DNA of 64,000 nt. Source: Octopus vulgaris (lineage: Eukaryota). Location: positions 48,360,001-48,424,000 of the forward strand of contig OX597820.1 of the NCBI GenBank assembly GCA_951406725.2. Direction: 5' to 3'. Both the position numbers and the translations under genes were made by a program. Position 1 is the stretch's first letter. Each line of letters opens with the position of its first letter. Shown in pieces: positions 9,901-58,950 of this stretch. The notes below the pieces were generated by a model. It was not told where the DNA came from. It worked only from the letters and a program-made list of their open reading frames with translations, and searched no databases.

Positions 9901-10361
9901 TAAAAAGTAACGTGTATTTGTCATTTAAAGGTAACTAGACTGCTATTTCTTGCAGGCAGTGTGACCACTTGGAAGATAAAACGTGAAAATGTTCCTATTA
10001 TTGTGCTGACATCTTTGACTAGTAAGAGAATATATTCTTACATACTTATACTTGTTTCAATAATAGGTTTGTGGCAATAAACAGCCATGAAAAATTTGGC
10101 CATTCAGATAACTTATAGTTGGGTACATATTCTATTGATCCTTTTGTCGAATCACTAAATTACATGGAAAAAGAAACATGCACCAGTTGTCAAGTGATTG
10201 TGGTCAAACACAAAGATACGCACACAACAATACCTACCTACCTACCTACCTACCTACCTACATACATACCTACAACCTTCCCGTTATATATCACGTGCTC
10301 ACGTGGTCTCACTTTTATCCTATATTCTACCACTAACTTCTCCTTGTTTCTTTTCTGTGTA

Positions 10362-10399
10362 TCTTTCTGTCGAAGAGCGTAGGCTCGAAACGTAAAAGA
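10362..10399 (+). ncRNA. Ultra-minimal hammerhead-like motif with variant core
   Basis: TCTTT CTGTCGA A GAGC gtag GCTC GAAA C GT A AAAGA: 5-bp stem I, 4-bp stem II, palindromic ACGT stem III, GUA triplet; core has A6U. Confidence 0.5.
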
Positions 10400-10460
10400 C
10401 TTGTTTTATTTTTATTCCCGATCGCCATACTAATAAAATTGTTTGTTTGTACTCCACCTA

Positions 10461-10552
10461 CCTTCGTCTTTTGTTTATTTTCGTAAACCTGCCTTCGTCT
10501 TTTGTTTATTTTCGTAAACCTGCCTTCGTCTTTTGTTTATTTTCGTAAACCT
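10461..10552. repeat. 31-bp tandem repeat, three copies
   Basis: ccttcgtcttttgtttattttcgtaaacctg repeated three times. Confidence 0.95.
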
Positions 10553-11089
10553 TCCCGTTACATACATACATACATACATACATACATACATACATACATA
10601 CATACATACATACATACATACATACATATGGAAAGATGGCAAGGCTTATTTTGTTGCTAATTCGTAATTTTGTCCAAGACTTCTTATGCAGAAAAAGACC
10701 TATAGACATATCAGTGTTGCGAGGTACAGGTAGAGCTTCGAGTTATGGCTCGTAGTTATTGATGTTGTTCTCGTTCGGAATATTCGCAGCGCCAGATACC
10801 TTCTTTCTAATAAAGTCAACGTTATTATTGTTGCCGCTGAATCCCAGGTTAGCCCTGATTAAACAACGCTAAAAACAAAATTGTTCCTTTCGTGGCCATA
10901 GAAATTTTCTGATATTGAAATATCCTATAGTATATTATCCAATCTAGTTTTATATTATATTTTATTTCATCCTTGAAATTATATTGGAAAATAATTTTGA
11001 CTTCTATTTCTAACATGTCGAGCGGCCAAATATTAGTTGCCCTACTGGTTTGTTATTTTTGAGGTCGTTATTGCTGGTAATCGAACTAC

Positions 11090-11700
11090 TATAGATTTCA
11101 AATTTCAGGAGAGGGAATAAGTCAATTACATCGTCTCCAGTGTTCAGCTTGTGCTTATTTTATCGATGCTGAAAACATAAAAGGTAAAGTCGACCAGGAG
11201 AGGAAATTGAACTCCCAACGTAAAAACGAACGAAAAGCCACGAAACATTCTGTCAGCTCGACGCTTTTAGCGGAGCGAATATTGATTTCAAATTTTGGCA
11301 TAAAGCCAGCATGTTTGGGTGGAAGAGATGTTGATTACATCGACCCCAGTGTTCAACTGGTATTTATTTTCGACCCCGAAAGGATGAAAAGCAAAGTCGA
11401 TCTCAGCGGAATTTGAACATAAAGACAGACAAAATGTCACACTGTTTTCCCGTCGTGCTAAGGATTCTTATTTCTTTACTGCCGACAAGGGGCTACACAC
11501 AGATGGGACAAACAAGGACAGACAAAGGGATTAAGTCGATTACATCGACCCCAGTGCGTAACTGGTACTTATTTAATCGACCCCGAAAGGATGAAAGGCA
11601 AAGTCGACCTCGGCGGAATTTGAACTCAGAACGTAGCGGCAGACGAAATACTGCTAAGCATTTCGCCGGCGTGCTAAGGATTCTGCCAGCTCAACGCTTT
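11090..11700 (-). mobile_element. Three tandem SINE family A copies; the last has the alternative 3' tail
   Basis: Three repeats of cgaccccgaaaggatgaaaggcaaagtcgacc-like core; tail aaggggctacacacagatgggacaaacaaggacagacaaagggattaag. Confidence 0.85.
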
Positions 11701-56289: not shown

Positions 56290-56299
56290 TACAACTTTC

Positions 56300-56790
56300 T
56301 AGAGATACCGTGTCTTCAAAGACGAAGTATGCTTCATAACTCATACAAATTTCGAACCCCAATTTTCTTAAAAGTAAACGCAAAGAAGCAAACGTAGCTG
56401 TAAACTGAAACCAACTCACAAAGTACATGGGAATTTTCGAAATAGAAGTATGGCATAAGCTGCTTATGTTGTTTTTGATCTCCTTCGAACATCTTGCGTC
56501 TTCTGTGATCAAAGTTCCAAGTTAGCTGAAGGATATACTTGCGTAATGATGTGATTGTCACATTAAGCATGTACTTTGGGTTTTCTATCTTTGTTACCAC
56601 CATGCATACTGACTTCTTGCAATTTATGAACAGACCCTTCCTCTCATTTCCTCTGGTCGCTACATCCAGATATCTTTAGAATTCCTTTTCCGGTTTTGTA
56701 AATAAGATTGCGCTATCTGCCTATTTTATGTTGGAGATGGTTTTGCCTCCTACCCTAAGACATTTTCTCTTCTCCACTTCTCTTATATAC
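56300..56790 (-). mobile_element. RTE-type LINE RT fragment
   Basis: VGGKTISNIK*ADSAIL (decayed YADD region)...KGLFINCKKSVCMVVTK...ITEDARCSKEIK. Confidence 0.7.
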
Positions 56791-58372
56791 ATGGACGGAA
56801 GTGGAAGCCATGTTCACACTTCTACTTAAGTATGGGCTGTATTATGATGCGTGTTATTGCACCTGATGAGAGAAATAATATGTAACACTTAATGCTGATT
56901 ACTGTACTGAAAATATTATTCTATCCTTGTTCTTTCATCTTATTCTTATTAAGATCTCCTCAAGGCGGCAAGCTATCAGAACTGTTAGTACGCTGGAAAA
57001 ATGCTTAGATGTATTTTGTCCGGTATTTTAGGGAATTGCAGATAAAACGTTGTCTGTTTACCCTGAAGGTACAAATAAATGCATTTATTCACATAGAGAC
57101 AGTGAATCTCCTCAATGAAAATGTATAAAAATTCTTACTTAGATATTTAGATTTTCCTTCACAAAAGTGCACTGGCTAAAGGACTCAATACAAGAGGGCT
57201 AATACTAACTAATAACATGCAAACTAAATTCGAAAAAGGCTCATACGTCAACAACAGAACAAAACATTTAAAAAAATGGACCGCGACAAAAAGCTGCCAC
57301 TCCTATTAAAACAGAACCAAACATAAATGTGTATTATATAAATCAAATGCATACTAGCTACACGGTAAATGAACAAATTATCAAAAATGTAAAAACAGAA
57401 TTCAGTATGCATTACATCAAATCATTAATTAAATCTAATGGGAAAATACCACTATAATTTTAAATCTCTATATTAATAATAAATTAAATCTATGTGTCTC
57501 GCCCGAAGAAACTATTGATGATGAATCTTAGTCGATTACGAATGACATAATTGTTAGATTCAAGACTCCAACTGATATATTGGATACAAACCGCAGCATG
57601 CTCACACCGGCTTACGCCCCTTTTAAAATAAGGAACAATTTCAAACAATTGCACTCCGCCATACAGAGCAGAACTTGAATGGAAGATATTAGTAGACCTC
57701 GCAGCATCACTCTACAAAGTTCCATACGAAAATAAAGATTTATGATGGAATTATGCATATATCATATAACAAAGCTAAAACAAGAGCACAAATAATAGCC
57801 ACACACAAAAACTAAAAGACAAAACGTTATTGGGCTGGAGACTTAACAGTCTAAAAATTAACTCACCTCAGCAGTATTTTATCTACAGAGGTTTAGAAAG
57901 GTTGAAGATGTATTTAGCGTCTTTGCATTTCCAGATACTACAAGAGAATCATTCCAAAATAAAAAAAAGCTCGATGAAAAATCCGAAAGCAGCAAGTTAT
58001 CAAATACAGCATGTACAAAGAGCAACCTGCTTCGTATATGTATGCAGACATAAGCACATAAATGCCTTCTGCGAAGATGTTCAAATGTAATATAAAAAAT
58101 GCAGGTTAAGATTATTGGAAGCTGGCAGAACTGTTAAACTTGTTTTAATTTAGCAATATATACATACATACATACACACATACAAACATATGTATATTTA
58201 TACACACACACACACACACACACACACACACACACACACACATATATATATATATATATATATATATATATATACATACATATATAAATACACATGTATG
58301 TTTGTGTAAATATATATGTATAAATATACTCACACACACATATATATACATATATATATATATATATATATA

Positions 58373-58610
58373 CCTTAGTTATGTTTCGACCAGGTCATGT
58401 CTAACTTAATAGCACCACCTTATAGGATTAGCTAAATCCTTTTTAAGTCAAATTTTGTGGTATTATGGTCTATTCGAGTAGGGAGGTCTTGTTGAGTGAG
58501 TTGTATAGAGATATAGGTGGCTTGTCTGGTATTCCTTGAAGAAGTGTGTCCACATTCCATTTAAAGGTGATGGGATCCTGCTCCTCTTAGATCTGTTTCG
58601 GGACAATATT
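58373..58610 (-). mobile_element. CR1-group LINE 3' end
   Basis: NIVPKQI*EEQDPITFKWNVDTLLQGIPDKPPISLYNSLNKTSLLE* (FKxxLDxxLxxIPDxP-like), short 3' UTR, then (TA)n. Confidence 0.65.
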
Positions 58611-58622
58611 AATATATATATC

Positions 58623-58950
58623 TATTAATAGTTATCACCAAGTTAACATGGCAGTCCAGAAAAATAGCTTGATTAACTTCAAGAGGCCATCGCCTCTAGC
58701 TAGCTATGTGACACACGAACCTGTGGGTTCGGCTGCTCTATATTGATGAGAGGCAAATACCCAGAAACTAATCTGTAGATGCCAGGCCAGCAAGGGGAAG
58801 CAGCTGACCTCCCCTGTTCGAAGGTGATAATGGACACAGGTTCGTGTGTCACGTAGCTAGCTGCATGCGATGGCCTCCTGGAGCTAATCAACGGCAGCAT
58901 TCATCCTATTTTTCTGGACTTCCATGTTAGCTTGGGGATAAATATTAATA
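58623..58950. repeat. Inverted repeat with ~105-115-bp arms
   Basis: agctagctatgtgacacacgaacctgtg versus cacaggttcgtgtgtcacgtagctagct; agtccagaaaaatag versus ctatttttctggact. Confidence 0.92.
58737..58779 (+). ncRNA. Degenerate hammerhead-like motif in the inverted-repeat spacer
   Basis: TCTATA TTGATGA G AGGCAAATACCC A GAAA CTAA T C TGTAGA: 6-bp stem I, C3U, stem II and stem III mutated. Confidence 0.45.

Follow-up and report, generated by a model that had tools for sequence, protein, structure and literature searches.

Why does a single stretch of octopus DNA carry twelve hammerhead-like motifs, and which elements brought them there? The stretch (hereafter the window) comprises 64,000 nucleotides of the Octopus vulgaris genome (assembly GCA_951406725.2, contig OX597820.1, positions 48,360,001 to 48,424,000 of the forward strand). 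It is AT-rich, and (TA)n, (CA)n and (TACA)n repeats are abundant. In a preliminary description, the motifs were ascribed to a diverse, possibly uncatalogued set of non-autonomous families mobilised by Penelope reverse transcriptases (RTs) into AT microsatellites. The present analysis indicates that the twelve motifs are hammerhead folds lying in fragments of the pseudo long terminal repeats (pLTRs) of several families of Penelope-like elements (PLEs), plus short tandem units that are likely non-autonomous derivatives. One of the fragments, family E, is a copy of a PLE leader likely reverse-transcribed from spliced RNA. I give this overall reading a probability of roughly 0.85.

All twelve type I motifs were found on the claimed strand, the positions given earlier being the low end of each motif within 3 nt. 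The C3 residues lie at 10367 (+), 16749 (-), 17253 (-), 17352 (+), 21080 (-), 22114 (+), 22651 (-), 23144 (-), 23665 (-), 27421 (-), 27763 (+) and 58743 (+). The count of ten motifs within 16.5-28 kb is correct. Since B, F and G each give two motifs from one insertion, there are nine insertions in all, seven of them within 16.5-28 kb: A (10.3 kb), B, C, D, E, F, A2, G and H. They were assigned to eight high-copy families, labelled A to H in the order in which they were examined. The 2.8-Gb genome was searched for copies of each family; 497-1531 first-look candidates were obtained per family, of which 40 were scored and 25-30 retrieved as the best copies. The candidate sets include the window copies themselves, and the F loci overlap inside arrays. 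It had been stated that the elements share little primary sequence. This holds only in part: the element at 10362 has 78% likeness to that at 23633, and the units of B and F, of similar period, align over about 270 nt (score 89 versus a shuffled maximum of 49).

The best genomic copies of each family retain the type I core, and helices I-III pair, the stem sequence differing by family. The 3-8 pair is U-A in D (23 of 25 copies) and H (21 of 24) and C-G in the other six families; natural covariation at this pair has been reported for hammerheads (PMC4209133, PMC3088659). Helix III is a short palindrome in all families, a mark of dimer-dependent hammerheads. The stems of family B, the oldest of the eight, covary, with 9 of 22 pairs changed on both sides. 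In the B alignment, 87% of cells are paired, versus 80% after shuffling and 28-45% with slid partners; this set holds 25 of 30 loci, four having been left out for want of a located core and one for a helix I deletion. In the other families the best copies are too similar to show covariation, yet their stems pair. Some core variants are fixed: A6U in A (25/25), U4C in F (25/25) and a U.U pair at 10.1/11.1 in D, E and F. U4C and A6C are described in the literature as reducing hammerhead activity. A literature search on these variants found nothing on A6U in hammerheads, one key paper lying outside its coverage. A paper reported to deal with dimeric PLE hammerheads (Lunse et al. 2017) may already cover some of these variants. 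By core and pairing, the motifs are type I hammerhead folds at the family level, and self-cleavage is a prediction.

Would the window by itself have revealed them? A strict descriptor found one locus in the window, against 0-4 across 12 shuffles. A relaxed descriptor, with settings chosen post hoc once the motifs were known, found nine loci against a shuffle mean of 2.5 and maximum of 6, and none of 40 shuffles reached nine. Other relaxed settings were weaker (13 versus 6.75, with 2 of 40 shuffles as high; 7 versus 4.45, with 8 of 40; another with 1 of 40). An Rfam scan of the window gave no hammerhead family among the 150 matches listed of 327, which were dominated by false hits to microsatellites, as was a general repeat search. 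The enrichment over shuffles is thus modest; the window by itself is suggestive, and the main support comes from the family level.

Which elements own these hammerheads? No PLE coding sequence was found in the window. Elsewhere in the genome, RT and GIY-YIG coding sequences are joined to copies of A, C and E. Family A (10274-10553, +), flanked by TACC and TACA repeats, is a partial-tandem pLTR. Its minimal hammerhead (10361-10400) has the A6U core, an extra base after A9 and a helix III palindrome of only 2 nt, and the fold is intact in all 25 best copies. A sense GIY-YIG coding sequence lies upstream in two of the 25 best loci. One of them, L238, can be read as an RT, a CX4CxxC linker and a GIY-YIG nuclease with CCHH, although the Pfam GIY-YIG match is weak and under the cut-off. 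Because family A runs upstream into an RT and GIY-YIG with this linker, its parent is read as a Neptune-like PLE, fitting Neptune or Nematis alike. The A2 element (23545-23720, -; hammerhead 23632-23671) is a diverged relative of A. Family C (17316-17515, +; hammerhead 17346-17409) is the 5′-truncated 3′ end of a Hydra-clade PLE. A polypyrimidine-AG stretch stands immediately 5′ of its hammerhead, and its 3′ end lies in (TAT)n/(TA)n. In five of the 25 best copies a sense open reading frame (ORF) of the Hydra-type GIY-YIG is found about 0.9 kb upstream, RT and nuclease pieces were also found, and by eye the protein resembles Hydra-1_Obim. The parent-coding loci examined were L238 for A, L236/L237 and L241.

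Family E (21885-22320, +) is flanked by (TA)n. An inverted 3′ part with a tail (21885-22076) stands head-to-head with a forward, intron-less copy of a Hydra-clade PLE leader (22077-22320). The hammerhead (22108-22182) has a CUGAAGA core, the U.U pair and a palindromic CGAUCG helix III; proximal helix I has just 2 bp here and 2-3 bp in the family. In the parent, the order is ORF, a 3′ untranslated region (UTR) of about 1.3 kb, an exon 1 of 25-29 nt, an intron, 13 nt, the hammerhead core, 346 nt and the next ATG. Exon 1 starts at what I take to be an initiator-like sequence. The intron is of the GT-AG type, about 640-900 nt long, with an AT-rich body. This complete architecture is present at six loci (L280, L283-L287). 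The coding parent is attached in one of the 25 best E loci, and in a reverse search with the endonuclease, E sequence lies downstream in 13 of 30 loci. The E-lineage loci have open frames of 838-862 aa with RT motifs. An 841-aa ORF carries the motifs RxKWK, DKT, CxCx5C, CxxC, CxH and YRDD and no CCHH, matching the Hydra-clade definition in section 11 of PMC8557442. Families C and E also show the partial-tandem pLTR, tail, inverted 5′ copy and (TA)n target of that clade. Being continuous with coding PLEs, A, C and E are read as terminal repeats of protein-coding PLEs, not as stand-alone, non-coding tandem retrozymes. The idea that all families are non-autonomous and non-coding is thereby refuted for these three, and their ends fall under the proviso, made in the preliminary description itself, that novelty is lost if the families are already annotated as ordinary Penelope LTRs. 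The claim that type I hammerheads of PLE origin were inserted in AT microsatellites is borne out.

Is the absence of the intron from the window copy of E an isolated event? The canonical exon junction gave 222 exact genomic matches and the retained donor 23. A pattern for either the retained acceptor or the short junction gave 202 matches, and the first 100 listed comprise 96 retained acceptors and three short junctions. This acceptor is also found spliced to a second donor, one that lies in the 3′ UTR (16/51 matches, ORF-bearing copies included). Control patterns gave 0-1 matches. The intron is absent from every one of the 25 best E loci (17 with the canonical junction, 7 with the junction 4 nt shorter, 1 with a substitution), although they were chosen with an intron-less query; the exact counts of junction, donor and acceptor are free of this bias. 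The window copy has the shorter, rarer form (22091-22106, +). Nearly all of 100 listed spliced copies start at exon 1 or within it, the distance upstream of the pattern being no more than about 20 nt. A hand count gave three local haplotypes of 67, 16 and 16 copies plus one other. The intron, whose retention is a trait of PLEs, is missing from the spliced E copies; it is kept in the acceptor-retaining E copies, about 200 in number, and in C.

With either donor, the lost sequence is bounded precisely by GT and AG, so reverse transcription of spliced sense RNA is the best explanation. As PLEs are described as intron-retaining, the intron-less E copies point to sense, spliced templates. The window copy of E is thus likely its parent's leader without the intron, reverse-transcribed from spliced RNA, an origin that the preliminary description does not mention. 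With some reserve, I lean towards a wider proposal: a Hydra-clade PLE may repeatedly retrotranspose its own spliced sense RNA, and initiation at the upstream pLTR would yield hundreds of short, intron-less hammerhead elements ending at the transcription start. Intron retention would then not be forced by the mechanism, an antisense template would be unneeded in this clade, and spliced leaders would offer a direct birth route for hammerhead-bearing elements resembling short interspersed elements (SINEs) or retrozymes, exon 1 supplying part of distal helix I. Folding indicates that exon 1 of spliced E can form an 8-bp distal helix I. Splicing as an on-switch of the ribozyme was considered and is not favoured; the constrained energies are -5.9 for the spliced form, -7.5, -2.4 and -6.4 for unspliced forms and -12.3 for the second-donor form.

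Some of the other families are tandem units. Family F (22331-23504, -) is an array of 2.4 units of 493 nt, 99% identical, with hammerheads at 22582-22657 and 23075-23150; U4C and the U.U pair are family-wide. Elsewhere in the genome its arrays are scattered and hold as many as seven of the 493-nt units. The units are 96-100% identical, the 5′ arms are inverted, and there is no ORF. At least two same-strand cores, spaced 493-506 nt apart, were found in 17 of 25 loci. Its units are non-coding, stand in tandem and each carry a type I hammerhead, and on these features F is a young non-LTR retrozyme-type element. Looking for F parents by means of a splice acceptor immediately 5′ of the core gave no match. 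Family B (16536-17315, -) is an old, non-coding, partially tandem unit of about 505-512 nt whose 3′ end adjoins (TA)n; its hammerheads are at 16690-16755 and 17195-17259, and same-strand tandem cores were found in two of 30 loci with a strict pattern. Family H (58623-58990, +) is a fold-back whose hammerhead (58737-58779) has the U3-A8 core, a 6-bp helix I and a CUAG palindrome; by eye, some genomic copies show a head-to-tail junction. B, the homologue of F, and H are probably tandem non-coding retrozyme-type units as well. The retrozyme reading given earlier therefore stands for F, probably for B and H, and falls for A, C and E. Some loci of B, D and H have a PLE ORF nearby, but these ORFs were rejected as parents, being separate insertions with ends of their own. 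Back-spliced circles were also considered as a source of the tandem units, for which no parent was found.

How might such copies arise? They have a fixed 3′ end 100-250 nt past the hammerhead, often with a second end beyond it (the tail), ragged 5′ ends, head-to-head inversions, microsatellite flanks and (TA)n at the 3′ end, all of which are PLE hallmarks in PMC8557442. The GIY-YIG nuclease would nick (TA)n, and the RT would begin internally on sense RNA, just upstream of the ORF, and copy toward the 5′ end. Starting at the downstream pLTR would give 5′-truncated, mostly intron-retaining copies (A, C and acceptor-retaining E), and a start on spliced mRNA, at its upstream pLTR, would give the short E copies. 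For an anole PLE in vitro, it is reported that the nuclease cuts AT-rich DNA, that the RT starts internally at two nearby RNA sites that set the tail, and that hammerhead cleavage is dispensable and protein-dependent (PMC11167929). Since the copies extend across the cleavage site, the RNA that was copied had not been cut; a hammerhead with this palindromic helix III is predicted to cleave only as a dimer or when a protein assists. F would have turned into self-standing tandem units that borrow the Hydra-type RT, and B and H probably did so too. The elements would accumulate together because each leaves and targets (TA)n, and fragments of A, B, C and E also adjoin one another at other loci. Similar AT-rich hairpin motifs are shared by the ends of B, F and E (16536-16560, 22440-22465 and, in L283, near the ORF start), and may mark the site of RT initiation. 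An alignment of E with F scored 79 against a shuffled maximum of 65, a slight excess.

Could all eight families instead be independent non-coding retrozymes that spread as self-cleaved circular RNAs? F, young and dispersed with 99-100% identity and its cores in tandem, would suit this, as would the head-to-tail junctions in B and H and the five families whose parent was not found. It is already refuted for A, C and E, which enter PLE ORFs; moreover, none of 25 loci has two same-strand cores (strict pattern) in C, D, E, G or H, and insertion ends lie off the cleavage site. As an account of all the families it is improbable. Still less credible, to the point of being nearly negligible, is that the motifs are chance matches or the products of DNA-level deletion with no RNA function. 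The strict scan of the window does no better than shuffles and a third of the window copies carry core lesions, but chance does not account for eight families with different stems that share the core spacing, the palindromic helix III and the 3-8 covariation. Nor does a deletion in DNA account for the loss in E falling exactly on GT and AG for two donors.

A more serious alternative is that the intron-less E copies descend from one spliced founder that was multiplied in a SINE-like manner, splicing being a rare accident. One haplotype does make up about two thirds of the listed spliced copies, and the shorter junction of the window copy, seen in seven of the 25 best loci, could be later slippage. 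However, the same acceptor is joined by two donors, so that at least two events took place, and the spliced copies have two alleles (TCA and TTA) in common with unspliced copies. Also, having no more than 25 nt of exon 1, such a founder would be expected to lack upstream promoter sequence. A single founder is thus unlikely, and repeated copying of spliced sense RNA is preferred.

Several points weigh against the reading given at the outset. Taken singly, most of the window copies are decayed, and four of the twelve carry a lesion in the core when compared with their family: GAGA at 16749, U3.G8 in place of the family's U3-A8 at 21080 and 58743, and CUAAAGA with a broken helix I at 27763. Several family cores are themselves off-consensus (A6U, U4C and the U.U closing helix II), the unconstrained minimum-energy fold of E differs from the hammerhead, and two of five covariation measures for B failed to beat shuffles. 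Only one of nine predicted Xenopus retrozymes cleaved in a recent preprint (10.64898/2026.07.22.740005). The Hydra ORF has no Pfam or PDB match, and the clade assignments, Hydra for C and E, are read from motifs and not from a phylogenetic tree. For five families (B, D, F, G and H) the search for a parent ORF was negative, so the mobiliser of these families is a presumed one. Finally, C has an acceptor-like site placed as in E, but none of 16 exact matches is a spliced copy; hence splicing is not general.

The window holds further hammerhead elements. Family D (21006-21352, -; hammerhead 21041-21086) is a short element; the family core is of the U3-A8 variant and has U10.1.U11.1. Its parent was sought without success: 98 of 100 listed tails enter microsatellite by hand count, and the two exceptions reach unrelated neighbours. 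It adjoins the decayed 3′ end of a long interspersed element (LINE) at 21360-21800 (+). The peptide at 21360-21470, presumably REL-endonuclease-like, was considered as part of D and rejected, since it belongs to the LINE fragment. Family G (27218-27885) is a head-to-head fold-back with hammerheads at 27339-27427 (-) and, decayed, at 27757-27845 (+). Its tails end in microsatellites, and no ORF was found up to 6 kb upstream of the two longest copies. A ninth element, I, is absent from the preliminary description. It is a microsatellite-flanked unit of about 870 nt with a terminal repeat (19735-20660, -) and had 1575 first-look candidates. Its hammerhead (about 20000-20085) has a split core, with the strand order helix II 5′ side, cleavage site, GAAA and CUGAUGA, plus an additional 6-bp helix. 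In 17 scored copies, the four helices are paired at 4-6 of 5-6 positions; in the window copy the cleavage site is mutated.

Other elements were noted in passing. A locus elsewhere in the genome (L290, G000:C3:111168500-111177500) has another Hydra-clade PLE in tandem, and between the copies lies a canonical hammerhead (CUGAAGA, 9-bp helix II, CACGUG palindrome). A sister Hydra subfamily (L281, L282, L288, L289) differs in helix II, shares the position of the acceptor (12-13 nt ahead of the core), and has a UTR and an intron that are both repetitive and very long. A Neptune-like PLE (L242, L243) keeps its 781-aa ORF intact in many copies, has another, separate ORF upstream, and looks recently active. 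In the window, one SINE-like family has at least 12 copies (750-1980, 5385-5530, 11110-11700, 14390-14650, 25330-25540, 31360-31780 and 49590-49840). RT fragments (RVT_1 match), a DUF4817 helix-turn-helix fragment and two ORF pieces lie at 43416-44663 (-), 26168-26590 (-) and 6783-8038 (+).

How do these elements compare with known systems? The hammerheads that PLEs carry in their pLTRs, described in PMC4209133 (Cervera and De la Pena 2014), are likewise of type I with a short palindromic helix III, and the U3-A8 variant, the extra base after A9 seen here in family A, mostly solo copies and opposite-strand pairs 100-700 bp apart are described there. In contrast, the family-wide A6U, U4C and U.U variants and intron-less genomic copies do not appear in the accessible text of that paper. 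Hydra-clade PLEs, including Hydra-1_Obim (Craig et al. 2021, PMC8557442), resemble C and E in the C-terminal GIY-YIG, the CxCx5C linker, the DKT and RWK-like motifs, (TA)n targeting, the canonical hammerhead, tails and inverted copies. However, PLEs are given there as intron-retaining, and Hydra-1_Obim is listed without a pLTR, whereas the octopus Hydra family has a leader intron and its spliced E copies are about as numerous as the acceptor-retaining ones. Penelope-like families of an octopus have already been catalogued, 31 of them recently active, and ribozymes are unmentioned in the available part of that catalogue (PMC13282606).

Animal non-LTR retrozymes (Cervera and De la Pena 2020, PMC7229834; Li, Clavereau and Pollet 2026, 10.64898/2026.07.22.740005) share with F, B and H the non-coding tandem units of 300-500 nt, a type I hammerhead per unit and kinship to PLE pLTRs, from which the 2026 preprint derives them. 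For F, B and H, expression as a self-cleaved circular RNA would be expected of such units, and no RNA record was listed for them. The accessible text of PMC7229834 mentions neither octopus nor cephalopod, and the preprint surveys 35 species with four invertebrates (three insects and one coral). As a very young retrozyme with an atypical core, F lends itself to assays of cleavage and of circular RNA.

The Penelope of Drosophila virilis (Schostak et al. 2008, PMC2377424) has an internal promoter, a short first exon and a 5′ leader intron inside the pLTR, as does the parent of E in its layout; its intron ends at helix I (PMC4209133). Why genomic PLE copies keep the intron has been considered in PMC2377424 and PMC3846280, an antisense template being proposed in the latter (Arkhipova et al. 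2013), and PMC8557442 treats its survival across an RNA stage as unexplained. In the accessible literature, no description was found of PLEs with abundant genomic copies that lack the intron; subscription papers, Repbase or Dfam and preprint supplements may hold one. Hammerheads in PLE ends, opposite-strand pairs and tandem retrozymes are all published, so the identification is ordinary, and the spliced Hydra leader is the addition. Unlike what those models were made to explain, family E has lost its intron precisely in hundreds of copies. With spliced and unspliced copies in similar numbers and two donors, it provides a natural test of which strand, and which state of RNA maturation, is copied by a PLE.

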